A stretch of 64,000 bases of DNA from Planctomycetota bacterium (GTDB lineage Bacteria > Planctomycetota > UBA1135 > UBA2386): positions 1,856,001 through 1,920,000 of the forward strand of contig OZ245838.1 of the NCBI GenBank assembly GCA_965228735.1, given 5' to 3'. The position numbers and the translations under genes are program-made. The notes under the pieces were generated by a model. It saw only the letters and a program-made list of their open reading frames with translations, ran no database searches and had not been told where the DNA came from. Each line of letters opens with the position of its first letter. The stretch's first letter is position 1. Positions 15,073-49,945 of the stretch are shown here, in pieces.

Positions 15073-15073
15073 T

Positions 15074-23448: not shown

Positions 23449-23452
23449 GCCC

Positions 23453-24031: not shown

Positions 24032-24032
24032 A

Positions 24033-27290: not shown

Positions 27291-30200
27291 CAGTGCCTCT
27301 TGCGCAGGTGCGTGGCCTTGTGCTCGGGATGCACGCGGCGATGCCTGCCGTCGAGCTCCTGAGCCGGTGGCAGGTAGCGCGAGACCATCCTGGCCGCGTT
27401 CTCGCCGCGCCGAATGCCCTCGTCGCCGCCGACCACGGGACCAGCCAGCAGCGACGCCAGGTGCCACGACCAGGCCAACCGGAACAGGTCCGACATCAGC
27501 GAGACGTCGCTCATGTACAGCGTGAAGAACAGGTGCGCGTCCTTCACGTCGCTGTAGATGACCTCGTAGCCGTCGTCGTCGACCTCGACCGCGAACGGGT
27601 AGTCGTCGGGGTTCACGTCGCGCAGATCGCCGGTGACACCAGGCGGCACGACCGCGCGCGGCCGCGCGACGTTCGGTGGCATGGCGTAGGCGTACTGGTA
27701 GTACTTCACCGGGTTCTGCACCTCGACGAGCTCGGTGCGGTCCTGCGCGAACGACCAGTTGCGCATCTCGAGCAGCGTGTCCCGCGACATCTCGAAGAAC
27801 TCGGCGCAGGCCTGGGCCTCCGGTGTCTCGTCCTTCAGGCTCTCGATGCGCACCGTGTGCCCCAGGTGCTTCAGCGCCTGGTTGCACAGCTCGACGGCGC
27901 CGGTCTCGTCCTGCTGCATCAACGCGGCGTTGATCGACACCGCCAGCTTGCCGGCGACCTTCTCGCCGTTGCGGGCCTCACCGACGCCGTTGAAGTGCAG
28001 CGGGTCCTCCCCGAACAGCGTGGTGCCGTCGAGCTTCGGGTGGTCCTCGGTCTCGATCGTCGAGCCGAACGGGTCGCGATACGTCAGCTGCTCGATGGCC
28101 TGGTTCACGAGGCCTTCGGTGTCCGCCACGACTGTCTGGCCGTAGAACTCGCCCTCGGCTTCCCACGGAAAGCTCGGCAGCTTGGCGTGGCAGAACGGCA
28201 GCTCGAGCAGGTCGTCGTAGGCCGAGATCCCGAGGTCGAAGATCGTCTTGCGCAGCCACCGATAGAACGCCGGCAACGAGCGGTGGTAGAGCTCGCGCCC
28301 GGCCTCGACGAGCGTCTCGGCCTCGCCCTGGAAGCCGTACGCGCCCACGATCGCGAGGCGCTTGTCGTTACCCTCGGCCGTCAGCGCGTGCGGTGCCATC
28401 TCGAGCATCGCCTGCAGGCGCGCGGCGTTGCCGGTCGGGTTGCCCGGCGTCCAGTCCAGGTTCTGGTCGTCGTCCCACCAGCCGAGCTGGCCCTGGAACC
28501 CGAACGCGTTGTTCGAGCTGCGCAGGAACTGGCCGCTGCTGTTGACGCCCAGGTGGATCACGTTGACCCGTCGACCGAGCATCGTCGACAGCTGCCAGGC
28601 CATGTTGATCATCGACCCGAAGCGGTGCGCGGGGATCCAGGTGACCTTCGACGCGGTCACCGTCGCGGGCTGCTCGAGGAAGAACGCCTCTCCGCCCGTC
28701 GGACTCGAGGTGAACACGATCTCGGCTCCACCGGGCGTCGCCGCGACCGTGATTCGGTCGGACGCCGGCACAGTGCGGACGTAGTACGTGGTGCCCGGCG
28801 TCAGCTCGGCCGGGCAGCCGGTGATGCTGAACGCGACCTCGTCGTCGACGCTTAGGTCGTGGTCGACCGCTTCGCCGTCGTCGTTCTGGAAAGCGACCGA
28901 GTTGTCGATGGCGTGCTGGAACACGGTCTTGCGATGCACGAACGGCCACACATCCACGGACGTGATCGGATCGCCGTTGGTCTCTTCGAGCTCGATCCAG
29001 CTCTGGCCCGGATCGGACGGGTTCATGGCCGTCACGCGGTACGTGCGCGTGACCTCGATGCCGTTCACCGTGCCGCCCCAGCCGCCGAGAGCGACCAGAT
29101 GACCCACCCGCGCGAAGTCCTCGAACTGGATCGCACCAGTGCCAGGATTGCTCACGCCGGCATTCTGCGTGGTGATCCGCAGCTTGTTGCCGCTGAGGGA
29201 TGCAGACAGCCACAGACCATCCGTCGCCCTCGTCTCGGCCACCTCCGACAGGTTGATCGCCTGATTCACGCTCGCGAAGATCGCCTCCCGCCCGACGTAG
29301 CTGCGCGTCAGCACCCCGCTCGGCCGGTTGTAGGTGGTCCCCGCCGACAGCGCCGACGTGCCGCCCGGCTGCATGTCGTTGGCCGGATACCGGAAGCCCT
29401 TGCCCGGGTTGCTGTGGTTCGGGTTGTCGCGGTAGTGCGGGACGTGGATCTCCCACTCCAGATCGCCAGTCGGCGCCGCCGGGATCCACTCCAGCCCGGT
29501 CAGCTGGCCGGCCGAGTTCTCGCCGATCGTCGCGCGCGCGTTGCCGCATCGCACCTCGGCGCCGTCGAACATGCCGACCTTCCACGCCGCACCCGCGACC
29601 GTCATCGACGTCGCATCCACCGACACGCCGGTTGCGTCGCCGACCGCGCCGATGCCCTCGACTCCCTCCTCCCATGCGAACTCGCGGAAGACCCCGCACT
29701 TGGCGTAGCTGTCGACCTCGGCAGGGTGGTCGTAGCCCGGGATGTCCGGCGCGCCCTCGGGGTAGTCGCCGGGCGTCTCCGGCTGGTAGGGCATGAGCAC
29801 GCGCACGTTGGCGTAGCTCTTCCAGCGGTCGTTGAAGTGGACGTAGCCGGCGAGGTTCTCGATCGCGACGTCGGCGAGCGCGAAGAAGTGCGCCCCCGCG
29901 GCGTCGCCGGCGAAGGCGATCGGCGTGCCGCCCTCGGTCTCGGCGACCTGGTAGTCGTTCACGTTGGCGTTGACGACGTAGTAGGTCTTCCGCCGCGACA
30001 GCGTGCTCGGCAGCAGATCGTCGGTCCAAAACCGCACCGCGTCGCCGTTGCTGCGACCGTGCGCGGCCGCATCGACCTGCAGATCCCCTCCGGCATCCGA
30101 GAACGTCACCGCGGCCTGACTGTCCGGCTCCAGCGGTGCGAGCCACTCCACGGTCAGCTGCAGCGCGAATACGCTGCCAGTGAACACCGTCGCGTTCGCG

Positions 30201-30556
30201 ACCACCCTGGCGAAACCGGCGCGCTGCGTGCCGGTCGGCTCGTCCCCGAACTCGAGGTGCACCAGCCGCAGGGTGGCGCCGACCAGGTCGTTGGTGCCGA
30301 AGAACTCGGCAACGGTGATGATCGACTGTTCGCCGACCGCGCCGTGCGGCTGCCCCGGCGTCACCGGGTCGATCGACAGCACCGTGATGTCGTAGCCGGC
30401 CGGGCGCAGCTGCAGGTGCGGCGCCTCGTCGAAGCCCTCGCGATCGCGGTGACCCCAGGGCCGAGCGTTGGACTGGCCCCACCCAACGATCGCGATCTCG
30501 CGGTCCTTGGGCAGGTTGGCGGCGAACTTGAGCATGTCGAACCGTTCGCCGGCCAC
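27290..30556 (-). CDS. SGNH/SASA esterase domain fused to tail adaptor (tubular protein A-like)
   Basis: GQSN, QGE and DPLH motifs; C-terminal ~200 aa VELCNQALKHLG...WSFA...YAYAMP. Confidence 0.8.
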   Translation of the reverse strand: MAGERFDMLKFAANLPKDREIAIVGWGQSNARPWGHRDREGFDEAPHLQLRPAGYDITVLSIDPVTPGQPHGAVGEQSIITVAEFFGTNDLVGATLRLVHLEFGDEPTGTQRAGFARVVANATVFTGSVFALQLTVEWLAPLEPDSQAAVTFSDAGGDLQVDAAAHGRSNGDAVRFWTDDLLPSTLSRRKTYYVVNANVNDYQVAETEGGTPIAFAGDAAGAHFFALADVAIENLAGYVHFNDRWKSYANVRVLMPYQPETPGDYPEGAPDIPGYDHPAEVDSYAKCGVFREFAWEEGVEGIGAVGDATGVSVDATSMTVAGAAWKVGMFDGAEVRCGNARATIGENSAGQLTGLEWIPAAPTGDLEWEIHVPHYRDNPNHSNPGKGFRYPANDMQPGGTSALSAGTTYNRPSGVLTRSYVGREAIFASVNQAINLSEVAETRATDGLWLSASLSGNKLRITTQNAGVSNPGTGAIQFEDFARVGHLVALGGWGGTVNGIEVTRTYRVTAMNPSDPGQSWIELEETNGDPITSVDVWPFVHRKTVFQHAIDNSVAFQNDDGEAVDHDLSVDDEVAFSITGCPAELTPGTTYYVRTVPASDRITVAATPGGAEIVFTSSPTGGEAFFLEQPATVTASKVTWIPAHRFGSMINMAWQLSTMLGRRVNVIHLGVNSSGQFLRSSNNAFGFQGQLGWWDDDQNLDWTPGNPTGNAARLQAMLEMAPHALTAEGNDKRLAIVGAYGFQGEAETLVEAGRELYHRSLPAFYRWLRKTIFDLGISAYDDLLELPFCHAKLPSFPWEAEGEFYGQTVVADTEGLVNQAIEQLTYRDPFGSTIETEDHPKLDGTTLFGEDPLHFNGVGEARNGEKVAGKLAVSINAALMQQDETGAVELCNQALKHLGHTVRIESLKDETPEAQACAEFFEMSRDTLLEMRNWSFAQDRTELVEVQNPVKYYQYAYAMPPNVARPRAVVPPGVTGDLRDVNPDDYPFAVEVDDDGYEVIYSDVKDAHLFFTLYMSDVSLMSDLFRLAWSWHLASLLAGPVVGGDEGIRRGENAARMVSRYLPPAQELDGRHRRVHPEHKATHLRKRH

Positions 30557-30606
30557 CGATCAAGCCGCAGCGCGAGGGCCGGCTGCGCTCGCGCTGCGGG
30601 GGTTGA

Positions 30607-31128
30607 TCAGAACCCGGTGTTGGCCTCGACCGCGCGCCAGTTCGGCGGCGTGTAGACCAACTGGGCGTCCATCATGCCGGCGGTCCACGGGTTGCCCGGC
30701 GCGGCCGCGTTGTAGCAGACGGGTGCGAGGTAGCGCGTCCGACCGTCCGCACCCTGAGCACCAGCCGCCAGGTAGTAGTGCGGACGCGGCAGCGGCACAT
30801 AGTACGGCTTCAGGTCGGGATCGCCGACCGTCAGCGCAAGCCCGGCAACGAGCCACGGCGTCGCCGCCGCGCCGCCCGTCAGGATCGGCAGGTACGTGTT
30901 CACGTCGTTGGTCGGATCGTCAGGATCCGACGTGAACGCGAACCCCATCTGCAGCCGCGCACTCGCGCCCACAAACGTCTCGGACACCGTGAACTTGAGG
31001 GCGATCTCGAGGCCACGGTTGGCCGCAAGGTCGCGCTCGACCCGGAGGTCGAGGGGTTCGCCGAAGTTCCAGAGGTTGGCGTTGCCGCAGTCGATCGTTC
31101 CGAAGTCGTGGAGTGAGTCGAGAATCAT
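30607..31128 (-). CDS. Capsid cement/decoration protein (Bbp16-like)
   Basis: MILDSL start, ...RYL...TAG.. pattern, near the capsid gene. Confidence 0.65.
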   Translation of the reverse strand: MILDSLHDFGTIDCGNANLWNFGEPLDLRVERDLAANRGLEIALKFTVSETFVGASARLQMGFAFTSDPDDPTNDVNTYLPILTGGAAATPWLVAGLALTVGDPDLKPYYVPLPRPHYYLAAGAQGADGRTRYLAPVCYNAAAPGNPWTAGMMDAQLVYTPPNWRAVEANTGF

Positions 31129-31616
31129 TGGTCATCCCCCGCGTTGCCGGCGCCGAGCCCCTCGGTGTTCGCCAGTTCCTGTTCCTGGGCCGCAGCCCGC
31201 CTTTCCTGCTCCCGGCGGGCCTGCTCCTGCAGAGCCCGCACGGCCTTGGGCGACTGCCCCGCCATCACGCTCGCATCGAGCGGGCGCATCACGCCGCGCG
31301 AATCCGGACGCCCGCCGAGCAGGCGCTCCTTGCGAGCCTGCGCGATGGAGAGGCACCACTCGGGCACCTTGTCGCCGTGGCGCAGGTAGAAGATCTCGCC
31401 AGCGCGCACGCGCTGGGAGTAGTACGAGCCCTCGGTGCGCGCCATGACGCGCACCTTCTCGGGCACCTTCGCGGGAGCAGCGGGCTGCCCCTGCGCAGCG
31501 TCGGAGCCAACCGGCGCGGCCGGATCGCCGCCCGGCAGCGGGCCGTCGGACGTCGCCGCGGCCTGCTGCTCCGCGTTCGGCGCGGCGTTCGCCGCGCCCT
31601 TCTTCTTGGTTGCCAT
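31125..31616 (-). CDS. Hypothetical virion-associated protein
   Basis: Between capsid and cement genes; VRVMARTEGSYYSQRVRAGEIF. Confidence 0.6.
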   Translation of the reverse strand: MATKKKGAANAAPNAEQQAAATSDGPLPGGDPAAPVGSDAAQGQPAAPAKVPEKVRVMARTEGSYYSQRVRAGEIFYLRHGDKVPEWCLSIAQARKERLLGGRPDSRGVMRPLDASVMAGQSPKAVRALQEQARREQERRAAAQEQELANTEGLGAGNAGDDQ

Positions 31617-31635
31617 CTTGGGTTCCTCCGATGGA

Positions 31636-32655
31636 TCAGGCGGCGTTCTGGACCAGGGTTTCGCCCGCGTTCAGCGCGTCGCAGCGCCGGACCGGCAGTT
31701 CGTCGAGCATGAGCACGCGCTTGCCCGCAACCATCTCCCAGCTCAGGGTCGAGCCGCGGATGGCGTTCGTCGCCTGGCGGCGGAACCACGAGCGGCCGCG
31801 CGCGTTGCAGTACAGCGCCTTCCGCGTGACCGCGCCCTGCGGCAGCATCTCGATGGCCTCCGAGACCATGTCGAGCAGATCGGCGCCGGCGCTCGCGTCC
31901 TTGGTCAGACCAGCCTGGTCGTACTGGATGCGGACGATGTAGCGCCAATCGGGGACCGCGAGGCCGGTTTCCCAGCAGAAGTAGCTCTGGTAGCCCTCGT
32001 ACTGGCCGCCGCCGTCCTTGGTGGTGACCGAGTAGTCGGCCTGCAGGGTCTTCTGACCCTGGAACTGCATGTCCAGCCCGGCCTTGCTGCCCTCGGGGTA
32101 GATCAGGTGGACGGAGCTCGGGCCCCAGCCGATCACCCACATCGAGCGCCACTGCGGCGAACCGCTCGCGGGGCCGACGATGATGTTCGAGCCGTTGGGC
32201 GCGTTCTTGTCGTCGAACCGCGGCAGCAGCCCGGTGAACTGCGCGTCGTCGGTGTCCTCGTTGCCGCGGAAGATCGTGCCGGCGATCTCGATCCCGAACG
32301 CGTGCATCTTGTCCGCGTTCTGGACCAGCATGAACTGCGCCGGATCCTTGGCCTTGTCGACGAGCTTCTTGTCGGCCTGGAAGTAGTCCGTGAGCTCGCC
32401 GCAACCGTCACGCACCTGCGTGGTGCTGCCGGTCGACGGCTGCACGCCGCCGTAGAGCTTGCGCCACGTCGGCTGCGAGTAGCCGGTCCGAAGGTTCGTC
32501 AGGTTGGTCGAACCATCGTTCGCCTCGAGCATCACCGCCTCTTCGAGGACGTCGTTCTCCTCGGCGATGATCTCCATGACCCGACCGATCTTGCCGTCGG
32601 GTCCCTCCAGTGCCTTGAGGTCCGAAAGGGTCGGCCTCGTGTTGGAAAGTGCCAT
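31636..32655 (-). CDS. Major capsid protein (BPP-1-like)
   Basis: WRKLYGGVQPS, FTGLLPRF, GLAVPDWRYIVRI, PVRRCDAL; GGGAGGG RBS. Confidence 0.9.
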   Translation of the reverse strand: MALSNTRPTLSDLKALEGPDGKIGRVMEIIAEENDVLEEAVMLEANDGSTNLTNLRTGYSQPTWRKLYGGVQPSTGSTTQVRDGCGELTDYFQADKKLVDKAKDPAQFMLVQNADKMHAFGIEIAGTIFRGNEDTDDAQFTGLLPRFDDKNAPNGSNIIVGPASGSPQWRSMWVIGWGPSSVHLIYPEGSKAGLDMQFQGQKTLQADYSVTTKDGGGQYEGYQSYFCWETGLAVPDWRYIVRIQYDQAGLTKDASAGADLLDMVSEAIEMLPQGAVTRKALYCNARGRSWFRRQATNAIRGSTLSWEMVAGKRVLMLDELPVRRCDALNAGETLVQNAA

Positions 32656-32678
32656 GCGTCAAACCCCTCCCTGGGGCC

Positions 32679-33371
32679 CTATTTCTTGCCTACGTCACCA
32701 AACAGGATGTCGGCGGTGCGGCGTTCCCCGCCCGCTCCGCCGGCGCCGACGACCAACGAGTCGTCTTCGCTGACCAGGTCTCCGGCCTTCGCGAGTGCCT
32801 TCAGCACCTGCAGGTTGCTGCCGAGTCCCGTGGTCTTGAGCAGACCGGACAGCTCTCCGCTCGGATCGAGCGCCTTCAGGGCGCGGCCGACCTTGCCGAG
32901 GTTGCTCTTGAGGTTGTCGCCTCCGAACTCCGGGTCGTTCCGGGTCTCGTTGAGCATCTCGTCGTGCTGCTTGCGCATCGCCTCGAGCTGCTGCTCGGCG
33001 ACCTGCTGCTGCACCACGGGCGCCATGGTGTCGATCACCATCTGCGCGTTGTCCTGCGTCAGGTTGAGCTTGCGCGCGACCTGCTCGGAGAAGTGCTCGA
33101 GCACCTGACCGCCGAGCTCGCTGCCGTCGGGGGCAGTCAGCTCGTAGGTCTCGGGTGCACCGGGCGCCGCCTCTCCGTCGCCGTCTTGCGTCTGCTCACC
33201 GGCCTCGGGCGGCTGTTCGCCGCCTTCCTGGCCGCCTTCGGCAGGTTGCTGTCCCTGCTCGCCTGACTGCTCTCCCGATCCCTCCGAGGAATCGAGCAGC
33301 GTGGCCAGGCCGTTGTCCGTGCCACCGTCGCTGTTTGGTGTTTCGGTCGGGTTTGGCTGCGGCTCACTCAT
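32679..33371 (-). CDS. Capsid scaffolding protein
   Basis: Acidic disordered N-terminus, PETYEL, DPEFGG, TGLGSN, C-terminal TADILFG; directly upstream of MCP. Confidence 0.75.
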   Translation of the reverse strand: MSEPQPNPTETPNSDGGTDNGLATLLDSSEGSGEQSGEQGQQPAEGGQEGGEQPPEAGEQTQDGDGEAAPGAPETYELTAPDGSELGGQVLEHFSEQVARKLNLTQDNAQMVIDTMAPVVQQQVAEQQLEAMRKQHDEMLNETRNDPEFGGDNLKSNLGKVGRALKALDPSGELSGLLKTTGLGSNLQVLKALAKAGDLVSEDDSLVVGAGGAGGERRTADILFGDVGKK

Positions 33372-33676
33372 TCGTCTCGCTCCTTCAGCATCTCCGCGTA
33401 GAGCTCAATGCACGTCGTACGCGCGAGCCGTTCGATCCGTCGCCCCAGCTTCTGCTCTCCGAGCTGCATGTACGTCGTCAGGGCGTTGGAGCCGTAGGCG
33501 ACGTTGTCGAGATCGCTCTCGCTCAGAATCCAGGCGACGAACGCGCGGCCTTGCGGCGTGCTCATCTGCGAACGAAGCAGTTCGATGACCCGCTGTTGCT
33601 TCGCCTGCTCGCGCTTGGCCTTGTCGGCCTGCGCCAGCTGGCGTTCGTCGCGGTTCAACGGGCGTCGCTCGCTCAT
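33368..33676 (-). CDS. Bbp19-like small head-module protein
   Basis: MSTPQGRAFVAWIL...GEQKLG. Confidence 0.65.
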   Translation of the reverse strand: MSERRPLNRDERQLAQADKAKREQAKQQRVIELLRSQMSTPQGRAFVAWILSESDLDNVAYGSNALTTYMQLGEQKLGRRIERLARTTCIELYAEMLKERDE

Positions 33677-33686
33677 GACGCCCGGA

Positions 33687-33723
33687 ACGCTAGGCCAGGG
33701 TGGGTGCCTTACGGTTACACCCC
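33687..33723 (-). promoter_or_regulatory. Putative late promoter, copy 1
   Basis: GGGGTGTAACCGTAA-N14-CCTAGCGT, 10 nt before the ATG at 33676. Confidence 0.7.
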
Positions 33724-33743
33724 GGCCCTTCGCCCGTGCCGGG

Positions 33744-35480
33744 TTAGACGCCGATCCCCAGCCCGCTGGTCATCCGCGTCTGGCGCCGGCCACCCGGAGC
33801 CGGCCCGCCCCCACCCCCAACCGAGTACTCGAACGCGCCGGCATCCGGCGCCACCAGGTCTCGGATGTCGTGCCCGATCGCGTCGTAGTCGTCGAGCACC
33901 GGCACCGGCGTGCCATAGCCAATCGCAGGTGACGTCGCCTGCAGATTCCAGTCCGTTGCCGAAACGAACAGCGGATCGACGTCCTCGAGGTTGTTCGAAG
34001 CCGTGACCGGCGAGCCGCCAGAGACCGACGTCGACGTCGCGTTCGGGCAGTACAGCAGGTTGTTGCGCACGAGCACGCTGGTGTCGGATGCCGCGACGTG
34101 GATCATCCGCGTGTTCGCCAGCACCTCCGTCGTGTGCAGCGTGTTGTGGTAGAACACCACGTCGCGGGGGTTCGGCGTGCCCGCGCCAATCTGATCGACG
34201 CGCACCCACTGGATCTCCAGCAGGTTCGTCGAGTCGTTCACGATGAACCGGTTGTTCCGGATCGTGCAGCCGTCATTGTTGACTTGGATCGGCGTCGGGT
34301 AGGCGTTGTCGCGGTGCAGCACCTCGAGGTCGTTCCGCTCGACGATGACATCCTCGACGCGGTTGTCTTGACCCGACGAAGCCGAGCCGAACGCCATGCA
34401 CCAGGCCGTGCGGTGCGTGAAGTAGTTACCCTGGATCACGTAGTGCCGCGACGTCGTGGTCGCGTCGACGTGCGACTTGCTGTGCAGCTTGATCGACAGC
34501 TTGTCGGCCTGCGCGTTCGCGAGGTTGCAGCCGGACACCACAACACGCTCGCCGAACGGGAAGCGCAGCAGGTGCTCGGTCGTGATATCTGCGAAGTTGC
34601 AGTTCAGGATCGCGCCGTCGCGAGCCGAGAAGTAGGCGCCGTACTGCGTGCCGCCAGGGTGATCGCAGTTCGCAATGCAAACGCCGTGGCAGATGTCGAC
34701 GGCGAAGAAGTCCGGCGTCTCATGGCCGAAGCCGTAGCACTGCGAGAACTCGCTCGCGCGGATGTGCGAGAACAGCAGATCATCGCCACGGTAGCTGAGG
34801 TTGAACAGCTTTCCGGGCGTGCCGCCGTTGATGTAGTCGAACTCGACGTCCACGAACCGGAGGTCGTCGCATTCGATGGTGCTGCCGCCGTTGCCGATCT
34901 GGACGACCGAATCGTCGGTCTGCACCTGCACGATCGGGTTGTTGTCGAAGATCCCGCGGACGTCGGGGTTGGTGCCCGTTCCGAAGGCGCCGATCGACAC
35001 CGGGGCTCCAGTGCCAGCACAGGTCACGCCGCTCGTCTGCAGGAAGCTATCGCCGCGCTTCATCAACAGCCGCCTGTCCGTGGCGTAGTAGCTCATCACG
35101 GTGTTGAAGCTCGACGTCGTGACCTGCGTCGCTCCGGCCGGAGCTCCGGTGAAGTCCGCGGTATTCGAGAAGCAGATCGTCTTCGTCCCCGCGAACACCA
35201 CGTCGGGGTCGGTCACCGTAATCACGACGTTCTGGGTCACGAACGAGCCGTCCGGCTCGGCGACGAGCAGCCGCACGGTGTAGGTGCCCGGCGTGCGGTA
35301 CACGTGCGCGGCGACCGCGCTGCTCGCGTGCCGCAGGTTATCGTCCATGTCCCAGTCGAACGTCAGCTCGTGGAACGGCCGCGTGGTCACCGTGCTCGTC
35401 GTGCCCGTGGCGTTGAAGTGGACGCTCAGCGGAGCGACGCCGGTGACCCGGCTCGTCGCCAAGGACACGGTGATCGCCAT
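33744..35480 (-). CDS. PKD + right-handed beta-helix protein, putative head fibre
   Basis: APLSVHF...HVYRTPGTYTVRL (PKD); Asn-rich beta-helix; DPLFV...SPAIG...DAGAFEY. Confidence 0.75.
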   Translation of the reverse strand: MAITVSLATSRVTGVAPLSVHFNATGTTSTVTTRPFHELTFDWDMDDNLRHASSAVAAHVYRTPGTYTVRLLVAEPDGSFVTQNVVITVTDPDVVFAGTKTICFSNTADFTGAPAGATQVTTSSFNTVMSYYATDRRLLMKRGDSFLQTSGVTCAGTGAPVSIGAFGTGTNPDVRGIFDNNPIVQVQTDDSVVQIGNGGSTIECDDLRFVDVEFDYINGGTPGKLFNLSYRGDDLLFSHIRASEFSQCYGFGHETPDFFAVDICHGVCIANCDHPGGTQYGAYFSARDGAILNCNFADITTEHLLRFPFGERVVVSGCNLANAQADKLSIKLHSKSHVDATTTSRHYVIQGNYFTHRTAWCMAFGSASSGQDNRVEDVIVERNDLEVLHRDNAYPTPIQVNNDGCTIRNNRFIVNDSTNLLEIQWVRVDQIGAGTPNPRDVVFYHNTLHTTEVLANTRMIHVAASDTSVLVRNNLLYCPNATSTSVSGGSPVTASNNLEDVDPLFVSATDWNLQATSPAIGYGTPVPVLDDYDAIGHDIRDLVAPDAGAFEYSVGGGGGPAPGGRRQTRMTSGLGIGV

Positions 35481-35492
35481 GACGCGCCCCTC

Positions 35493-35765
35493 TCAGTAGC
35501 CGACCGCGAAGTCGGAAGCCGTCGTGTTCGTCTGCATGATCCGCTTCGGACGGAACGGCAGAACTGTGCCGTCAGGGACATTCAGGAATGGCACGATCTC
35601 GTCGTCAAACGACATCAGGTAGACGTTGCCTCCGGTGCCGACGTAGACGCACTCCGGAGTCGGAACGAGGTCGGCACTGTCGCTGACGCCCACCGCTGCA
35701 AAGGCCGACGACGTGCCGCCCCGACCACGACCGGGATACCCCGGGTCACTCGTTGGAGCCCCCAT
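35493..35765 (-). CDS. Head-spike base protein (RcGTA Rcc01079-like)
   Basis: SDSADL...VYVGTGGNV...NVPDGTVLPFRPKRIMQTNTTA. Confidence 0.7.
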   Translation of the reverse strand: MGAPTSDPGYPGRGRGGTSSAFAAVGVSDSADLVPTPECVYVGTGGNVYLMSFDDEIVPFLNVPDGTVLPFRPKRIMQTNTTASDFAVGY

Positions 35766-35766
35766 C

Positions 35767-36081
35767 TCAGCCCCCCTTGCCCTGCTCGAGCAGCGCGATG
35801 ATCGCGGCCAACGTCCCTGGCTCGAGCTCCTGCAGCGCGAGCAGCTCGTCGACGTCGACCAGGTGGTCGCCGTTCTTGTCGAGGACCGGGATGAGCTCGG
35901 GCCGCTCTTCGGCGAGGTACTCGGTCGCCTTCAGTGCCACGAACGCCCTGCTCAACTCCTCCGCGAGCCCCTGCAGGTTCGTCGCGCGGCCGCCGCTCGA
36001 CTCGCACGAGCAAAGCAGCAGCGACAGCGGGATCAGAAGAAGCAGCGCCAGACGCCGCACGTATCGGTAGATCGGGTTCAT
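35767..36081 (-). CDS. Predicted lipoprotein with EF-hand-like loop
   Basis: Signal peptide ending LLCSC; DKNGDHLVDVDEL. Confidence 0.6.
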   Translation of the reverse strand: MNPIYRYVRRLALLLLIPLSLLLCSCESSGGRATNLQGLAEELSRAFVALKATEYLAEERPELIPVLDKNGDHLVDVDELLALQELEPGTLAAIIALLEQGKGG

Positions 36082-36359
36082 CGGTTCCCGAGGGCCTTCA
36101 GCACCTCGTCGTAGAGCTCACGGTTTCGGGTCAACGTGCCCGCCATCACCGTTTCGTGGCGGGCATTGATCTCGATCAGTTGGGCCTCGTGGCGTGCGTT
36201 GATCGCGTCCAGCTGGGCCTCATGGCGCGCTGACTGCGCGTCCATCTGCTTGGCGTGCGCCTCGGTGATCCGCTCGAGGTACTTCAGCGCGTGGAGCACC
36301 AGGAACACGATCGCCGCGATCCCCGGCATCTGCTTCGCGATCTCGACGAGCAGGTCCAT
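36078..36359 (-). CDS. Holin-like single-TM coiled-coil protein
   Basis: MDLLVEIAKQMPGIAAIVFLVLHAL then three ARHE repeats; TGATG and ATGA overlaps. Confidence 0.55.
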   Translation of the reverse strand: MDLLVEIAKQMPGIAAIVFLVLHALKYLERITEAHAKQMDAQSARHEAQLDAINARHEAQLIEINARHETVMAGTLTRNRELYDEVLKALGNR

Positions 36360-36748
36360 CAGATGCCCACCAGGATGCGCGCGCGGTAGCGCGCGGTGTA
36401 GACGACTGCCATGACCGACCAGAACGCCACGCCGACGTGGCCAATCGTGAACAGGTGGTACGGTGCCCACCAGAACGCGACGACGTTCTCGACGATGTGC
36501 ATCAGGCCGCACGCCATGATGAACGAACCGTAGACCTGACGGGCGTGCAGACTCTGCTCCGGAGTCAGGCGCGCAAGGTGTGTCGCCGACTCTGCGCCAG
36601 GCATGCGCAGGATCCACCGAATCGCGAAGTAGCTCACGCCGGTCGCGAGGTTGGCCATGATGTAGACCCACTCGAACAGCAGGTTCCACTCCATGCAGCA
36701 GCCGCGGGTCGAGCCGGTGCGCAGCAGCATCTCGAACAACATCTGCAT
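36359..36748 (-). CDS. Stand-alone ethylene-receptor-like three-TM domain
   Basis: GCCMEW...ANLATGVSYFAI...YGSFIMACGLMH...WWAPY matches the ETR1-type sensor domain. Confidence 0.75.
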   Translation of the reverse strand: MQMLFEMLLRTGSTRGCCMEWNLLFEWVYIMANLATGVSYFAIRWILRMPGAESATHLARLTPEQSLHARQVYGSFIMACGLMHIVENVVAFWWAPYHLFTIGHVGVAFWSVMAVVYTARYRARILVGI

Positions 36749-36751
36749 GCT

Positions 36752-38455
36752 TCAGACCCCCGCAGCCGAGAGAGCTCCCAGCGCTTCGTTCGCCGCGTTC
36801 GCATCGCCACCCGTCGGCACACCGGCCAGGTCCCGCATCGTCTTCGCCTGCACCGCACCAGCCTCGATCTGCGCCTGCGCCGCCTGCGCGTCGGCGCGCG
36901 CCTTGCGCACCACCGCGACCTGCTGCCCGCCGTGCACATGCTCGGGATCGACCCCCATCCGATCCGCCACGCGATCGGCGATCGAATCGGCGTTCACCTT
37001 GTCGGTGACGTCCCTGCGGAAGTCCGCCAGGATCCCGACCGTGCCGAGCCACCGCTCGGTCGAGCGCGTCTCGTAGGCCTGCTGCGCCTGCGCCAGCAGC
37101 GAAACGAACTCGATGTTCAGCTCGTGCCCGACTAGGTCCGGCGGCGGCGGCGGGATCTCGCCAGCCTCGGCCAACCGCAGGAACGCGTTGTCGACGAGCG
37201 GCTCGAGCAGCTCGTTGTGCGTCCGCTGCAGCATCGGGCCGAGCATCAGCATCTTCTCTTCCTGCAGCTGGCTGACCTCGAACTTCGTCCGCTCCTGGTT
37301 CGTGGTGTTGGCCAGCAGCAGGAACATGTCGACGTTCATCGCGCGGTTGATCCGCTGCTGCACGTCGAGAAGGTCCGCCCGCAGTTCCCCGAACGGGATG
37401 TTCGGCTCGAACAGCGGCTTGATGCCGCCGTTGGGGTGCGGCGTGTCGACCGGGTTCCAGCCGCCCGGCAGCGAGTCGATCTCGTGACCGTCGACGCGGG
37501 TCGGCCCCTGCAGCGACGGATCGAGGTAGAGGTCGATCGCGTTGCCCTTCTGCAGCTGCTCGTGATTGAGCTGCCGCATGTCGCCGAGCGCCTGCATGCC
37601 GGGCCCGTAGCCGTAGATGTCGCCGCCGTAGGTCCACCACCTCGGTACCACCGCGGGGAACTCGCGGAAGCCGCCGACCTTCAGCAGCCCGTCAGTCCCG
37701 TCGTTGCCGTTGAGCTCGAAGTAGACCGACTCGAACGCCATGTCCTCGCGGTGCGGGCTGGCCTTGTCGCGCTTCATGCGCGGTTCGATGGCGTGGCAGA
37801 CCGGGACCCACTCGTCGTAGTGCTGCCGGTTCCACTTCTCCTTCGTCCCCTGCGAGCAGTTCTCGAGCCCGAACTGCTCGACCAGCGCGTGCACCGGCAT
37901 CTCGAACTCGCGGTAGATCGTGTTGATCAGGCCGTCCCAAGACGCCCCGACCGAATACTCGCCGATCGTCAGAGGGTGCAGGTGGATCAGGTTCTTCGGG
38001 TGCGGAACGATGATCCCGGCCCCGGTCCCGAACGCGCCCTCCTCCTGGAAGATGTTGTGCAGGCCGTGGTAGACGTTGCTCTTCTGGAACAGCCGCAGGA
38101 TCCGCTCGGTGACCGCGTACAGCCACTTCTTGACCGGCCGGAACTTGTTCAGGCTCGGGTCCGCGGTCGCCATGCGGATCCACGGCATCGTGCTCGGGGC
38201 CGCGCCTGCCATGAGGCCTGCGGTCTGCACCTGCAGCGACCAGTGCGGCGTGCTGTCGTAGATCGCGTGATCGCGGCGGTGGCCCTTGTTGCGGTCCTGA
38301 ATGAAGAACCGGCCCGCGCGCGGCAGCAGAACCTCGCTGATGTCCTTCCAGTGCGGATCCCAGGTGCTGCGCTCGTTCTTGAGCACGTCCAGGCGCTTCC
38401 GCTTCTGCTTCCGGTCCGGCAGGTTGCGCGCGCGGTATCCCTCGACGTCCACCAT
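36752..38455 (-). CDS. Portal (head-tail connector)
   Basis: IYDST, FGTG, VPRWW...YGYGPGMQALGD, TKFEV, EFVSLLAQAQ. Confidence 0.9.
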   Translation of the reverse strand: MVDVEGYRARNLPDRKQKRKRLDVLKNERSTWDPHWKDISEVLLPRAGRFFIQDRNKGHRRDHAIYDSTPHWSLQVQTAGLMAGAAPSTMPWIRMATADPSLNKFRPVKKWLYAVTERILRLFQKSNVYHGLHNIFQEEGAFGTGAGIIVPHPKNLIHLHPLTIGEYSVGASWDGLINTIYREFEMPVHALVEQFGLENCSQGTKEKWNRQHYDEWVPVCHAIEPRMKRDKASPHREDMAFESVYFELNGNDGTDGLLKVGGFREFPAVVPRWWTYGGDIYGYGPGMQALGDMRQLNHEQLQKGNAIDLYLDPSLQGPTRVDGHEIDSLPGGWNPVDTPHPNGGIKPLFEPNIPFGELRADLLDVQQRINRAMNVDMFLLLANTTNQERTKFEVSQLQEEKMLMLGPMLQRTHNELLEPLVDNAFLRLAEAGEIPPPPPDLVGHELNIEFVSLLAQAQQAYETRSTERWLGTVGILADFRRDVTDKVNADSIADRVADRMGVDPEHVHGGQQVAVVRKARADAQAAQAQIEAGAVQAKTMRDLAGVPTGGDANAANEALGALSAAGV

Positions 38456-38458
38456 GCG

Positions 38459-38785
38459 CTACTCCCCGAGTAGAGTGGTGCGGCCGAGACGGAGCCGCGA
38501 GCGGTCGACGCCGCCTGGCCCCGTCAGAAAGGAACTCCCCAGTCCCCCGAGCTCGTCTTGTTCGCTGGTGGCGAGCAGCGCGGCGAGGTTCGGGCGACTG
38601 CGCCGCTCCTCGGCGATCTCGCGTTGTGCGGCCTCGCGGCGTGCGGCGCTGGCCTCGCCCGTGGCGCGGTCCTGCGCGAGCGCCTGGCGCTTGTTCGCGC
38701 GCTGCTGCTGGTTCTGCGCCTGGTGCTGGTTGGCGGCGCTCGCCGCCGAGATCAGCAGCCCGAATGCCGGGATCGCCTGCGCCAT
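38459..38785 (-). CDS. Small virion protein (start 38785)
   Basis: Ends LTGPGGVD...RTTLLG, typical of the pre-portal gene in podoviruses. Confidence 0.65.
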   Translation of the reverse strand: MAQAIPAFGLLISAASAANQHQAQNQQQRANKRQALAQDRATGEASAARREAAQREIAEERRSRPNLAALLATSEQDELGGLGSSFLTGPGGVDRSRLRLGRTTLLGE

Positions 38786-38787
38786 GG

Positions 38788-39252
38788 TCAGAGCGCCCTC
38801 CGGTAGACGGTCTCGAGCGGCTTGAACCCGAGCTCCTGCAGCAGTGCGACCGCGTTGGTTTGCGCCTTGGCCGCGAACTCGATGTCGGTGGCCTGGAAGT
38901 CGCGGCCGAGCTCCATGGCGGCCTCGATGAGATCGACGCCGAGGCGGCCGCGGCGCGCGTCCTCGGCGAGAAACAGCGCCTCGACCCTGGCGACGCGCTC
39001 GTGCTGGGCCTGCGGCAGCTCGGCGAACGTGACGGCGGCGTAGCCGACCCACTCGTCGCCGCGGCGGACCGCGACGCAGCGCAGGCGCCCGCAGCCAGCA
39101 GCGGCCTGGTAGAGCTGCCAGTCGATGTCGAGCGGTGTGGTGGCGGCGCGGCCGGAGAGATCCCGCCAGTGCTGCTCGAAGAGCGCCTGGCAGTTCTCAC
39201 GTAGCTCGGCGACGGTCGCCGGCTCGATCCTGCAGGTCAGGGTCTCGGCCAT
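38788..39252 (-). CDS. GNAT acetyltransferase
   Basis: LFLAEDARRGRLGVDLI...LGFK. Confidence 0.75.
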   Translation of the reverse strand: MAETLTCRIEPATVAELRENCQALFEQHWRDLSGRAATTPLDIDWQLYQAAAGCGRLRCVAVRRGDEWVGYAAVTFAELPQAQHERVARVEALFLAEDARRGRLGVDLIEAAMELGRDFQATDIEFAAKAQTNAVALLQELGFKPLETVYRRAL

Positions 39253-39260
39253 CGACCGAG

Positions 39261-39297
39261 ACGCTAGGAGGCGATTCAGGCGTTACGGTTACACCCC
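39261..39297 (-). promoter_or_regulatory. Putative late promoter, copy 2
   Basis: Same two boxes and N14 spacing as copy 1; 8 nt before the ATG at 39252. Confidence 0.7.
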
Positions 39298-39792
39298 CTG
39301 GCCGGGAGGCACCTTCGGATGCACCTTGTTCCCAGCTCGATCGTAGAGCTCGAACGGCAGCTGCAGCCGCAGCTCGCCTCCATCACCGACCGAGACTGGC
39401 ATCCCAGTCCGCACCTCGAATTGCTCCGCGAACTGCTCGGGGGTCAGACCTCGCGCAGCGCACTCCTTCACGACCCACCTCTCGAGCTGCAGGTACAGTT
39501 CTCGGTGAACCCTCCGCGCGACATCGGCCGCTGACGCGGCCATCGTCTCGACGGGCTCCACGCCATCCCCGTCCGGGTCCGGATCCTCGAACTCCTCGTA
39601 GTCCGCGATGTCGTCGCGCTCATGATCGCACAGCAGCACGAGCGGCTTGCCGCGAGTGTGCTCGAGGAACCGGTGCAGGCGCCGCATGACGCTCGGCTGC
39701 CCCCAGTAGAACGATGTCATCGAACGCCAACCCTGACCGACCCAGATCGTCTGTCGGGTCTCGTGACACACCAAGCTGAACGTCTGGCTCAT
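39289..39792 (-). CDS. Hypothetical phage protein
   Basis: ATGA overlap; MSQTFSLVCHETRQTIWVGQG. Confidence 0.6.
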   Translation of the reverse strand: MSQTFSLVCHETRQTIWVGQGWRSMTSFYWGQPSVMRRLHRFLEHTRGKPLVLLCDHERDDIADYEEFEDPDPDGDGVEPVETMAASAADVARRVHRELYLQLERWVVKECAARGLTPEQFAEQFEVRTGMPVSVGDGGELRLQLPFELYDRAGNKVHPKVPPGQGV

Positions 39793-40058
39793 TGGTCTTT
39801 CGCGTCTTGCATCCTGCCGTCCTGGTCCAACGGATACCGCTCCAGGTAGTCCTCGATCAACCCGTCGACCACCTCCTGATCCCCCGCGAGGACGATCTCA
39901 TACGTCTTCAGGAGTTCATGCGTCTTCGGCCACTGCAGATCGCTGCGATCTTCGATCCCGAGCTGGTAACAGCGAGCTCGGAGCCCCGCGAGAGTGCGCC
40001 CCGCGACCTCCCAGCCCAGCGTCAGGTAGAACGTCCGCTCGTAGTTGGTCGTCGTCAT
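39789..40058 (-). CDS. Hypothetical phage protein
   Basis: Starts 1 nt after the terL stop. Confidence 0.55.
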   Translation of the reverse strand: MTTTNYERTFYLTLGWEVAGRTLAGLRARCYQLGIEDRSDLQWPKTHELLKTYEIVLAGDQEVVDGLIEDYLERYPLDQDGRMQDAKDQ

Positions 40059-40059
40059 T

Positions 40060-41631
40060 TCACTTGTCCCTCCGATACGGGTCCCGCACCTGCTTCTTGC
40101 GCTGGCTCCGCTTCTTCGCGAACTCCCGCCGCTTCGGCGTGTGCATCAGCGCCAGGAAGTAGGCGCTCGCCTTGTCCGGAGAATACCCGAGCTTGTCGAC
40201 CACCTCCTCCCGCGACGCCACCTTGATCTCCCGCCGCGGCTGCGACCACGTGTATGCGCACAGCTCCGCCAGCAGCTGGCGATCCGGCGGCAGGCAGATC
40301 CCGGTGTTACTCACCGGGTCCAACGCCTCCCGCATGCGCCAGACCAGCTCCGATCGGAGGTTGAACAGCGGCTGCGCGCCATTCTCGGTCACACCCATCG
40401 CCGGGTCGCCGACGTTGACGCCGATCACGTGCTGGTCCATCGCCATGAGGTGGCCGTACGGCTGCGCCCCGACCCCGAACAGGTCGAGGTGGATCACCGC
40501 CTCGTCACGCTTCGCCGCCACGATGTATCCGGCGATCGTCGGCCCGTTCGGGCAGTCCTTGCCCTCGTAGACGATCGGCTCGTCGAACCAGTAGCCGTGC
40601 CGCCGCGCAATCACCGTGCGGTCGTCGCCGCCCATGGCGACGTCAACGCCGAGGCTCTCCATCGGCGGCAGCCGTTCCGGACGGGACCACCGCTCCATCG
40701 CGGCCTCGACCCATGCTGTGGGAATCACCTGGAAAGCGTCGTCCTTCAGTCCCGCGTCGAAGTCCCCGTAGAGCAGCTGCGAGCGCCGCGGCTCGGGCTG
40801 GCTCTGGATCTGGCTCACGTAGTCCGTGGCCATGTAGAACGGGTTGTCGGTCACGCGCGCCGGGATGAACGTGCGTGACTTCGGTCGGATGATCTGCTCC
40901 GGCGTGAATTCCTCGGGGTCGAAGTCGTAGACCGGCTTCTCATCGACGACCACGAACGGGCGGTCGTCCGGCAGCTCTCGGTCCTTCTTCGCGATCGTTG
41001 TGAACCACCGGAGCTCGCCAGGCACCGCCGGGTTCGGGTGCTTGCGGTCAAGCCATGGGGCGAAGAACCGGATCACCCACTGGCCCTCCACCGTCATCGG
41101 CGGGTTGAACGTCATCATGACGCGCGAGCGCTGATCGGGGTTGCTGGTGCGGTTCCAGCCCATGATGAACCGCACCTGGTCCTCCCGCATCTCGGTGACC
41201 TCGTCGAAGGCCTTCAGGTCGTGCGGCCGGCCGGCCCAACGCCGCTCGTCGCCCTTGTTGTCGAGGCCGCCGAACTCGATCAGGCGGCGCTCGACCATCC
41301 ACTTCGACTTCTGACTGCTGTAGCCGCGCGTGTCACCGAGCAGCTCCGTCATTCGCTGCACGATACCCTCGGTCTGCGCCTTCTCGCGCCGGATGATCAG
41401 CGTGCGTTCGTGCTCGGTCAGCGCGAGGCCCGCGACCAGGTCGGTCTTGCCGCCGCCGGCGGCGCCGCCGTATCCGACGATGTCAGCCTCGCTCTCGAAT
41501 GCCTGCAGCTGGGGGCCCGGAAGCGGCCGCCAGATTCGGCCGTCGTCGAGCAGGCCCTCGAGCTTCTCGCGCTCCTCGGGAGTCATGTACGCGAGGAGCG
41601 ACGGGTCGTACTCAAAGGCGTCAGTCGCCAT
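40060..41631 (-). CDS. terL: Terminase large subunit
   Basis: Walker A GGAAGGGKT, Walker B AFDE, TFNP, nuclease GVDVA and SPDKA. Confidence 0.93.
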   Translation of the reverse strand: MATDAFEYDPSLLAYMTPEEREKLEGLLDDGRIWRPLPGPQLQAFESEADIVGYGGAAGGGKTDLVAGLALTEHERTLIIRREKAQTEGIVQRMTELLGDTRGYSSQKSKWMVERRLIEFGGLDNKGDERRWAGRPHDLKAFDEVTEMREDQVRFIMGWNRTSNPDQRSRVMMTFNPPMTVEGQWVIRFFAPWLDRKHPNPAVPGELRWFTTIAKKDRELPDDRPFVVVDEKPVYDFDPEEFTPEQIIRPKSRTFIPARVTDNPFYMATDYVSQIQSQPEPRRSQLLYGDFDAGLKDDAFQVIPTAWVEAAMERWSRPERLPPMESLGVDVAMGGDDRTVIARRHGYWFDEPIVYEGKDCPNGPTIAGYIVAAKRDEAVIHLDLFGVGAQPYGHLMAMDQHVIGVNVGDPAMGVTENGAQPLFNLRSELVWRMREALDPVSNTGICLPPDRQLLAELCAYTWSQPRREIKVASREEVVDKLGYSPDKASAYFLALMHTPKRREFAKKRSQRKKQVRDPYRRDK

Positions 41632-42304
41632 CCCCCTCGCCTTCCGCCTCCGCCTTCCGCTGCGCCGCCACCTGCAGCAGCGCCTGAATCTGCGCCCCGC
41701 GCTCGACGTCCGTCATCTTGATCGCGGGCGCGTCGGGGTCCCCGCCGATCGCCAGCTTGTCGCCGAACGTCTTCGGCAACATCTTGCACAGCGCCCATTT
41801 GAGCGTGTCCACGTGTAGCCGCCGGTGCGCCACCATGTCCTGCTTCACGACCTTGCGCTCGAGCACGGGCATCTCGGTCTGCTCACCGTCCTCGCCGTCC
41901 TTGACGATCACCTTCGACTCCTCGGTGACGATCTCGCCGACCTGCGGATTCCTCGCGACCTCGATGAGCTCTTCGGCCCAGTTCATGGCGCGCAGCTGGA
42001 TGGCGCGCGCGTACTGCTCGGCAAACCCTTCCCGGTCCTCGATGACCCAGGTGTGCACCGTGGTCGCTGGTGGCAGGTGCTCGTCCTCGCAGATCCGCCG
42101 CACGCTCTCCGTCGGGATGCGGCGGAGGATCTCCTCGGCGATCTCCGGCGTGTAGCGCGTTGGCCGGCCGCGCGGTCGTTTCGCCGCCGGCTTCGATGCT
42201 TTACGCGCGTTACGCGTTGCGTTACGCGTCGCCTTGCGCTTCGTCGTCGCCTTCTTTCGTGGCGCCTTCTTGCGGGTCTTCTTGGTCATCGTGGACTCGG
42301 ACAC
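41621..42304 (-). CDS. terS: Terminase small subunit
   Basis: GRPTRYTPEIAEEI...SVRRIC...FAEQYARA...RLHVDTLKW. Confidence 0.85.
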   Translation of the reverse strand: MSESTMTKKTRKKAPRKKATTKRKATRNATRNARKASKPAAKRPRGRPTRYTPEIAEEILRRIPTESVRRICEDEHLPPATTVHTWVIEDREGFAEQYARAIQLRAMNWAEELIEVARNPQVGEIVTEESKVIVKDGEDGEQTEMPVLERKVVKQDMVAHRRLHVDTLKWALCKMLPKTFGDKLAIGGDPDAPAIKMTDVERGAQIQALLQVAAQRKAEAEGEGDGD

Positions 42305-42581
42305 GGCGCCAGGACCGCGGGAACTGCGCGCGTCGTTCGCAGCGCGCGATCTTGGCGACCGTGTCTCTCGACAGGTTCAGCTGCTTGGCGATTGTGCCAT
42401 ACCCTTGGCCGTCGTCGCGCAGCTGGAAGATGCGACGCACCACCGCGTCGGGGATGGTCGCGTTGTGGTGAGACTCGCCGACGCGACGACCGTCCTCGTT
42501 GACGCCGACCAGCCGTGTGGTGCCCGGCGCCGGACGGAGCTTGTCGCTAAGTCGGACGCGTTTGGTCATCAACCCCCTCAC
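42222..42581 (-). CDS. HTH protein
   Basis: GESHHNATI...YGTIAKQLNLSRDTVAKI. Confidence 0.65.
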   Translation of the reverse strand: MRGLMTKRVRLSDKLRPAPGTTRLVGVNEDGRRVGESHHNATIPDAVVRRIFQLRDDGQGYGTIAKQLNLSRDTVAKIARCERRAQFPRSWRRVRVHDDQEDPQEGATKEGDDEAQGDA

Positions 42582-42582
42582 G

Positions 42583-42828
42583 TCATAGCGTCGCCTTGGC
42601 GAACTCCCCGCACTTGACGGACGCCGGCGGGAACCGGTAGGCGCCGCCGACCAGGGCTCCGGGTTGCTGTGGGTGCGGGTGTGGCAGAATGAACGACGGC
42701 GGGTATCGGCGGCAGTCGCCCTTCACGCTGTGGCGGCAGTCGTGGCAGCCGACCTTCGTGATGTCGACACCGCCGGCGAGGTCTGCCGGCGTGATTCTGG
42801 GGCGGTCGTTGGGGTTGCTGTTGGCCAT
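42583..42828 (-). CDS. Small Cys-rich protein
   Basis: CHDC...CRRYPP...CGEF. Confidence 0.6.
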   Translation of the reverse strand: MANSNPNDRPRITPADLAGGVDITKVGCHDCRHSVKGDCRRYPPSFILPHPHPQQPGALVGGAYRFPPASVKCGEFAKATL

Positions 42829-42831
42829 GCC

Positions 42832-43071
42832 CTACAGCCCCCCTCGCCCCAGCTTGGTCTCGTCGAGCTTGTGATCGCCGCACCAGTCGCGCTCGAACAC
42901 CGCGGGGAACCCGTTCATCGTCGGTGCCGCGCGCCGACAGCGCCCGAGCGCACCGCGCGCGTCGCCCGTCGTCTTCGGCTCCTTCGCGACGAACCACATG
43001 CAGCTCGAGCACGGCATGCCGGCGCTTCGGTGTACCCACGGGTCCTTCGATTCTTGCTCTTGCATCCTCAC
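42832..43071 (-). CDS. Small Cys-rich protein, similar pattern to its neighbour
   Basis: CSSC...CRRAAP...WCGDH. Confidence 0.6.
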   Translation of the reverse strand: MRMQEQESKDPWVHRSAGMPCSSCMWFVAKEPKTTGDARGALGRCRRAAPTMNGFPAVFERDWCGDHKLDETKLGRGGL

Positions 43072-49644: not shown

Positions 49645-49895
49645 CAGCGCGCCCCCTCGAGGTCCGCGACCTCACCCCCGAGCGCGACGATCAGCTCCGC
49701 CTCGCTCAGCCCGACCGGCAACCGGCCGCGGCGGACCCCTCCCAGTCCCACCTGACCACGGCGTGCGATGTTGTCCACAGCCGTTCGCCCGCGCTCGCCG
49801 CGCGAACGGATTTCGTAAGCACCCGTCTGAGTCCCGAGGCCTTCCTCGGTACTATCTACGTCGCGGCTACGCCCCGACTTCGCATATGGCGAGGT

Positions 49896-49923: not shown

Positions 49924-49945
49924 TTCTCAGTTTGCTCACCGAAAC

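Follow-up and report, generated by a model that had tools for sequence, protein, structure and literature searches.

A stand-alone ethylene-receptor-type membrane domain encoded beside a single-TM protein and a predicted lipoprotein in a Planctomycetota prophage, and its putative role in a membrane cassette

We analysed a stretch of 64,000 nucleotides from a Planctomycetota bacterium (hereafter the window), in which a 32-bp repeat of the tmRNA 3' end (5728-5759 and 49896-49926) marks both edges of a prophage of about 44 kb (5728..49926). The prophage contains an integrase gene (6978-8195) as well as terminase, portal, capsid, tail, and internal virion genes. Within its structural genes, a block of five minus-strand genes lies between the portal (head-tail connector) gene (36752..38455, minus strand) and a group comprising a Bbp19-like gene, a scaffold/protease gene (PHROG 458), and a GP7-type major capsid gene (31636..33676, minus strand), which were assigned by Pfam and PHROG matches. 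The first gene of the block (36359..36748), separated from the end of the portal gene by 3 bases, encodes a stand-alone ETR1_N-family protein of 129 aa (P0001), assigned by a Pfam match, an AlphaFold2 model, and residue alignment. It is followed by the genes for a 93-aa protein with one N-terminal transmembrane (TM) segment, a helical tail of coiled-coil type, and the family motif E-x-A-K-Q-x-P (36078..36359), and for a 104-aa predicted lipoprotein with a basic N-terminus, a hydrophobic stretch, and Cys26 in a lipobox read by eye (35767..36081). The fourth gene (35493..35765), which begins 1 base past the lipoprotein stop, encodes a 90-aa protein matching PHROG 12296 (labelled tail fibre), and the last (33744..35480) a 578-aa PKD-domain protein. 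An earlier note on this DNA, made from the sequence alone, had described the first three of these genes, and we found their ORFs where it had put them, on the minus strand and joined as it had said by a TGATG overlap between the ETR1_N stop and the start of the 93-aa gene and by an ATGA overlap between the 93-aa and lipoprotein genes. The 578-aa protein has a choice-of-anchor-Q-like end and is possibly a virion decoration protein or a depolymerase.

The GC3 of the three-gene set was 0.89-0.91, compared with 0.93 for the portal and capsid genes, and by a hydropathy filter the genes of this cassette were the sole clear membrane genes of the structural operon. A crude scan of positions 33000-39500 found no promoter-like site (0.3 expected) and three terminators (2.6 expected). 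Because the ETR1-like gene stands 3 bases behind the portal gene and no promoter-like site was found, we infer that it is co-expressed late with the portal operon. Near-identical DNA was present in sequencing runs of six studies, one of them labelled a coral metagenome, and the matching contigs had no substitutions listed.

P0001 scored 30.4 bits against the Pfam profile ETR1_N (PF25487; cut-off 27) over residues 27-124, and the same cut-off was passed by all 12 scanned relatives in other loci. Against a profile of 28 fused receptors it scored 40.7-40.9 bits, while the best of 1000 shuffled sequences and the reversed sequence reached 12.2. These profile scores put the likeness to ETR1 beyond chance and P0001 within the ETR1_N domain family, which bears out the proposal of an ETR1 sensor domain made in the earlier note from the motifs GCCMEW, SYFAI, FIMACGLMH, and WWAPY, all of which lie within this protein. 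AlphaFold2, run on an alignment (A1) of P0001 with 58 of its 70 phmmer relatives (the 12 left out were mostly longer), predicted three helices (23-48, 63-90, and 97-120) with a mean pLDDT of 89.1, and the ORF stops shortly past the third. A VIA-align fold search with this model returned generic helical bundles only (best Z 8.9, rmsd 3.2, 96 residues aligned), a result that excludes no family, and a Foldseek search against BFVD returned nothing at E ≤ 0.001. No PDB sequence matched the ETR1_N-family profile, other PDB sequence searches gave chance matches or none, and no solved structure of the ethylene-binding domain turned up in the searches made. The domain does stand alone, as had been noted: neither the 129-aa ORF nor the scanned prophage proteins contained a fused or adjacent signalling output (kinase, cyclase, or receiver).

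A phmmer search over 1.84 billion representatives retrieved 70 relatives of P0001, most of them short (54 of up to 160 aa, 13 of 161-210 aa, and 3 longer). In the Atlas, 17 of 30 matched clusters carried ETR1_N; the three clusters listed comprised proteins of 130-138 aa, and the few members with a recorded phylum were most often Uroviricota. Other searches were less productive. A word-indexed homolog search returned only P0001 itself when given the single sequence and eight proteins when given an alignment; scans of viral contigs with P0001, with P0074, and with a partner yielded no relatives, and a scan with a narrower alignment only two loci already known. Pattern scans gave mostly chance matches (3 of 19 and 8 of 32 were genuine, and 3 of 51 for the partner), and tblastn against 50,697 phage records gave useful scores only in the Molly/Colly records. 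Among 401 genomes of the host phylum, 46 had an ETR1_N match (58 matches), and just three matches fell in frames below 200 aa, namely this gene, a gene in the tail region of a prophage in genome G080, and a piece of a broken fused receptor. Within the class, 29 of 339 genomes had a match, and the short-frame members of these 37 matches were this gene and one partial match. Elsewhere on the host chromosome, a single further ETR1_N match lies in a long receptor of the fused type, whose PAS, GGDEF, and EAL parts were read from motifs.

A quick, weakly resolved tree was computed from 137 alignment columns of 115 domains, after removal of 3 duplicates. In it, one branch of 32 rows (SH-aLRT 88) united 29 of the 30 fused domains, that of the host among them, and P0001 fell in a 56-row branch with 54 short forms (SH-aLRT 92). 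With P0001 and its nearest relative left out, a profile of the remaining 66 short forms gave P0001 a score of 111 bits. Tree and profile score thus place the gene in a separate lineage of short proteins, mostly encoded by phages, and outside the fused receptors. One 129-aa relative ends at the C-terminus in the same way as P0001, and a Gly plus a hydrophobic residue form the C-terminal end in 21 of 58 short proteins, P0001 included. Where the DNA of a locus was available, this end preceded the gene overlap, so its codons may serve as the ribosome site for the following gene. Two variants of the domain organization were also observed: in P0035 a domain of the short lineage is joined to a PAS-like part and a coiled coil, with no kinase, and a chromosomal ETR1_N protein (L036, 5497-6132) with Asp and Lys kept has a helical tail of only 75 aa. 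The latter and an adjoining separate ORF, which may be a kinase, are possibly a split host receptor.

ETR1 numbering was anchored by spacing. Asp and Cys lie 40 residues apart in 25 of 30 fused relatives and His and Lys 19 apart in all 30, and D35, C75, H79, and K98 of AzoEtr1 have the same spacings (PMC11819568). The equivalents of D25, Y32, C65, H69, K91, and P36 in P0001 were N33, Y40, C80, H84, H104, and R44, respectively, so that the earlier reading of conserved Cys, His, and Tyr32 with Asn at Asp25 held in the alignment. P0001 shares with ETR1 (Arabidopsis), SynEtr1 (Synechocystis), and AzoEtr1 (Azospirillum) the three helices, a Cys-x3-His in helix 2, and the equivalents of Tyr32, Ile35, Ile62, and Ser98. 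It differs from them in the replacement of Asp25, Lys91, Pro36, and Thr94 by Asn, His, Arg, and Val, in a cytoplasmic loop 7 residues longer, in having no GAF, PAS, kinase, or cyclase part, and in the location of its gene, which is linked to a single-TM gene within the structural operon of a phage. Among 68 short forms, Cys65 was kept in 66, His69 in 68, Tyr32 in 66, and Pro36 in 31; position 25 was occupied by Asp in 1, Asn in 40, His in 12, and Gln in 7, and position 91 by Lys in 2 and His in 53, counts that may reflect few events in a set gathered by likeness to P0001, whose members are kin and may include cut genes. The 30 fused forms kept Asp25 in 28 and Lys91 in 27. Over 115 rows both residues were kept in 30, neither in 81, and one only in 4, indicating that the pair was replaced together, and the Cys/His pair appears to be still under selection in the short lineage. 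Ethylene receptors are homodimers with N-terminal cysteines, and P0001 has Cys17 and Cys18, the latter kept in 64 of 68 short forms and 29 of 30 fused receptors.

Tyr32 is among the residues that ethylene binding needs. D25, I35, P36, I62, C65, and H69 are needed as well (PMC10266040, PMC11819568, PMC6586836), and five of these seven are kept in P0001, N33 replacing D25 and R44 replacing P36. In addition, one study counts P36 among the essential binding residues and ascribes to T94 a relevance for signal transmission (PMC6586836). By the features tested, the 129-aa protein would not be an ethylene receptor, because it has only five of the seven binding residues and its relay is missing. In ethylene receptors the Asp25-Lys91 pair couples binding to helix 3. 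Copper binding by ETR1 is supported by Asp25, which also forms a bridge to Lys91 and so passes the signal on, and an ETR1 model places D25 2.8 Å from H69 and 3.3 Å from K91 (PMC10266040). Because D25 is thus close to both residues in that model, H104 would be expected near the site and may be a further metal ligand. The D25N variant of ETR1 is reported to show minimal copper binding in vitro, yet the receptor works in plants (PMC10266040).

A profile of seven partners of the 93-aa type retrieved 48 proteins, none with a Pfam label, of which 40 were aligned. Basic residues (K/R) were more numerous on the C-terminal side of the TM segment in 36 of the 40 rows, and because of this charge bias, a crude rule, an N-out/C-in topology is predicted for the 93-aa protein. 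In its size, single N-terminal TM segment, and helical tail it resembles the BhlA/UviB-type holins (PF10960), and the Atlas placed it, besides unnamed viral clusters, with one BhlA cluster at 0.90 (175 shared features; PF10960 in 59% of members), the recognition score being under threshold. However, the BhlA profile matched nothing in the genome at E ≤ 10 and none of the seven partner-family members; the earlier term holin-like therefore fits the anatomy and the Atlas lead, and a profile match is absent. Of the 'EF-hand lipoprotein' claimed for the third gene, the lipobox could be read by eye, while the EF-hand-like loop, single where EF-hand loops usually come in pairs, scored 12.1 bits (E 0.15) against a cut-off of 25.4. 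For this lipoprotein no convincing relative was found, the matches in 9 of 400 other genomes being weak (E at best 5e-4) and embedded in long ORFs.

The partner family also occurs without the ETR1-like gene. None of three viral partner loci (two distinct) had ETR1_N, nor did any of 28 partner loci of phylum genomes over about 3 kb each. The family was found in 13 of 401 phylum genomes, this one included, some with four to five copies, and in three ETR1_N-free prophage-like regions tail genes were followed by the partner and then by a lipobox-bearing gene (lipobox by eye). Since the single-TM gene and a lipoprotein gene are found together in the absence of the ETR1-like gene, these two would make up the core, to which the ETR1-like gene seems to be an optional addition. 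Several genomes of two families have four to five similar phage-tail regions each (L143-L170 and L172-L174), each ending in a single-TM gene; in three of these that were read further, host or defence-type genes were interleaved.

Thirteen other distinct kinase-free ETR1_N loci were compared (L003, L004, L035, L039, L040, L055, L061, L063/L077, L066, L067, L068, L080, and L082). Clear phage evidence (a cultured phage, an IMG/VR record, or terminase, tail, or LPD38 genes) was available for nine; outside these were L063, L066, L080, and L082, with host-like genes upstream in L080 and L082. An immediate neighbour of the ETR1_N gene in 11 of the 13 encodes a protein with a single TM segment at the N-terminus and a helical tail, and where this neighbour lay downstream the two genes overlapped by TGATG or ATGA in eight of nine loci. 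In L040 the single-TM gene stands two genes upstream, and a downstream gene encodes a 2-TM protein that weakly matches a holin (PHROG 126, E 0.0028); in L082 (3766-4980) an ETR1_N gene with a 41-aa tail is followed by a gene with PAS_3 and a C-terminal TM segment, a pair without a kinase domain. The neighbour in L004 shares 46% identity with the 93-aa protein over 39 residues (E 2e-12), while the portal and capsid of that locus differ, and its ETR1_N gene lies between terminase and portal. One member comes from a cultured phage: gp65 of Maribacter phage Molly_1 (QQO97550.1; L003, 4893-5762), a 289-aa protein annotated as hypothetical with an ETR1_N score of 60.9 bits. Like P0001 it is a phage-encoded ETR1_N protein overlapped with a single-TM gene, in this case upstream; it differs in its 160-aa tail, in an Asp at the Lys91 place, and in directly preceding an amidase gene, the product of which is a potential endolysin according to the isolation paper (PMC8776804). 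The word 'ethylene' is absent from the main text of that paper, and none of the openly accessible papers listed in the literature searches described a phage-borne ETR1 domain. The 2-TM proteins of L040 (7562-7798), which follows the ETR1_N gene, and L116 (4447-4668), which follows a single-TM gene, look similar by eye and make up a candidate holin family.

The earlier note had suggested that the protein may tune lysis. This is plausible and the link of the cassette to lysis is circumstantial: a canonical phage lysis cassette has an endolysin beside the membrane genes, and none was recognized here by Pfam, PHROG, and NCBIfam scans of the prophage proteins. Two PHROGs labelled endolysin matched only the N-terminal part (residues 36-265) of a 765-aa protein (21151-23448), which from its position we read as a virion protein. 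Within 3 kb of 12 ETR1_N loci and five partner-only loci, some on short contigs, no endolysin was found either (90 filtered ORFs, with Pfam run on 90 and PHROGs on 47), so that the only endolysin-linked locus among the 13 was that of Molly_1, a distant member. The end of a tail module is a usual place for lysis genes, and the ETR1_N copies of L035 and L067 lie there. Just upstream of the terminase genes there is a long ORF (43071-45434, minus strand) whose likely start has a signal-peptide-like segment and which had no Pfam, PHROG, NCBIfam, or PDB match; it is a candidate for an unrecognized wall-degrading enzyme.

Architecture offers a parallel. The LysF1a/LysF1b and LysA2a/LysA2b systems of mycobacteriophages Girr, NBJ, and D29 likewise combine a multi-TM protein, a one-TM protein (N-out, C-in), and a lipoprotein. 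LysF1b, with one TM segment and an N-out/C-in topology, is reported to activate LysF1a (PMC13056207); phage D29 has a lysis network of a 2-TM protein, a 1-TM protein, and a lipoprotein (10.64898/2026.08.27.747656), and its lysis genes need not all adjoin the endolysin. The likeness is one of architecture, and there are differences: the multi-TM partners there have two TM segments, a metal site is not described in the abstracts, the hosts belong to another group, and endolysins are known there, whereas none was recognized here.

The explanation we put first, with a confidence slightly short of even, is that P0001 binds a metal and serves as an accessory in a late, lysis-type membrane cassette. 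It would be an ethylene-receptor membrane domain of a phage lineage that has no signalling part and whose relay pair Asp25-Lys91 has become Asn-His. Metal binding is the better founded part and is judged probable; the metal, probably copper, would have Cys80 and His84 as ligands, perhaps with a contribution from His104. The single-TM protein and the predicted lipoprotein would form the core and the ETR1-like protein an optional subunit, its C-terminus inside and presumably in contact with the single-TM protein. Host lysis would be the most likely job of such a cassette, a role that we consider evenly balanced, and the ETR1-like protein would determine or move the point at which it is triggered. 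That the protein acts on an outside signal is the least supported step and appears doubtful; of the earlier label of a phage membrane sensor, the phage context is supported, together with a conserved single-TM neighbour, and sensing is less so, since the residues that relay the signal in ETR1 (Asp25-Lys91) are both replaced, as are Pro36 and Thr94. Against the explanation as a whole stand the position among head genes, the Arg at P36, and the failure of the partner to match the BhlA profile.

The position among head genes favours a different assignment, in which a late or lysogenic membrane module unrelated to lysis serves superinfection exclusion, envelope remodelling, or virion-assembly anchoring, the ETR1-like protein being a metal-stabilized helical scaffold. 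The terminase-portal interval occupied in L004, the 12 of 13 other loci without a nearby endolysin, and a subtilase and a PAS-TM protein among the neighbours point the same way. However, the L035 and L067 copies stand at the end of tail modules, one copy precedes an amidase gene, and the crude scan of 33000-39500 found no promoter-like site; we regard this assignment as rather unlikely. Also unlikely, and slightly more so, is a direct form of signal control, a Cys-His-His metal switch gating phage lysis in which copper load, redox state, or a small gas times the burst; here the kinase would be gone, Lys91 would have become a third ligand, and the single-TM partner would be the output.

Alternatively, the three-helix protein might itself breach the membrane, as a dimer that is holin-like or permeable to ions, with its single-TM partner as the activator. 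A pore role is kept open by a preprint that reports Ca2+ permeability of ETR1 and ERS1 in oocytes, dependent on N-terminal cysteines (10.1101/2025.10.20.683334), and is in keeping with the multi-TM plus 1-TM precedent of LysF1a/LysF1b (PMC13056207), the frequent Cys18 of the short forms (64/68), and the below-cut-off EF-hand-like loop of the lipoprotein. Yet the preprint concerns full-length plant receptors, Cys18 is equally kept in fused receptors (29/30), and the occurrence of the partner family without an ETR1_N gene means that the domain is not the required pore, which leaves this a quite improbable proposal.

Interference with host receptors, which the earlier note had also suggested, would take the form of a decoy that dimerizes with host ETR1-type receptors through its membrane domain and thereby silences or freezes their signalling, whether by kinase or by c-di-GMP. 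The host chromosome does encode a fused ETR1_N receptor, but its domain shares only 28% identity with P0001, any ETR1_N match was present in only 46 of 401 phylum genomes, and in two genomes with the short copy (the incomplete drafts G080 and G401) the searches showed no fused receptor, weakly disfavouring the idea; nor would an early host-control gene be expected in a structural operon and closely coupled to a membrane gene. We consider a decoy very unlikely.

Inner spanins have their N-terminus inside and their tail in the periplasm. A spanin pair made of the 93-aa and 104-aa proteins, with the ETR1-like gene as a separate passenger or holin, would suit the order of a single-TM, helical-tail gene and a lipoprotein gene here and in three other regions, as well as the weak Rz-like PHROG matches of the L055 neighbour (E 3e-4). 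It is opposed by the charge bias for C-in in 36 of 40 rows and by the lack of any spanin profile match for the 93-aa protein, and we give it little credence. Still less is given to the idea that the protein simply sequesters copper or makes infected cells tolerant of it: Cys and His are kept and an extra His is gained in most short forms, but at most one site per chain is available, D25N weakens copper binding in ETR1 (PMC10266040), and the conserved single-TM coupling would be left unexplained. Finally, we rejected as virtually without probability a decaying fragment of a host sensor kinase taken up by the prophage, an alternative raised in the earlier note and favoured only by the fused receptor in the host, on the grounds of the profile scores (111 bits for short forms, 40.7-40.9 for fused ones), a tree that nests P0001 among short forms away from that receptor, the C-terminal end shared with a 129-aa relative, and codon use matching the neighbours.

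So far, the ethylene-binding domain has been known for its input role in receptors of plants and bacteria. A kinase-free phage lineage with Asn-His for Asp25-Lys91 offers a natural test of how the copper site and the relay are separable; with 129 aa, the protein is also a compact structural target. If it tunes lysis, a chemical input would be added to lysis timing, and if it were a switch, lysis would be under signal control without a transcription step, a new use of the ETR1 fold. The cassette points to unannotated membrane genes in phages without a recognized holin or endolysin, and Molly_1, as a cultured phage, makes the question testable.

Several other features of the window were recorded. 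A GNAT acetyltransferase gene (38788-39252, minus strand) lies between terminase and portal, and a tRNA-Met (CAT) gene lies within the prophage (9974-10049, minus strand). Both tail-tube-type genes (24033-30556, minus strand) far exceed the PHROG models, at 1088 and up to 1284 aa, and the big N-terminal additions of their products share a tail-fibre-like segment. A third copy of the tmRNA-end repeat about 16 kb beyond the prophage indicates a second, smaller element in tandem with it, which extends from 49896 past the end of the window at 64000 (to about 1922109 of genome C1). Integrase-like (49990-51306), primase-like (55805-58015), and terminase-like (60888-62285) ORFs were read in it by eye, and this element may be a satellite.
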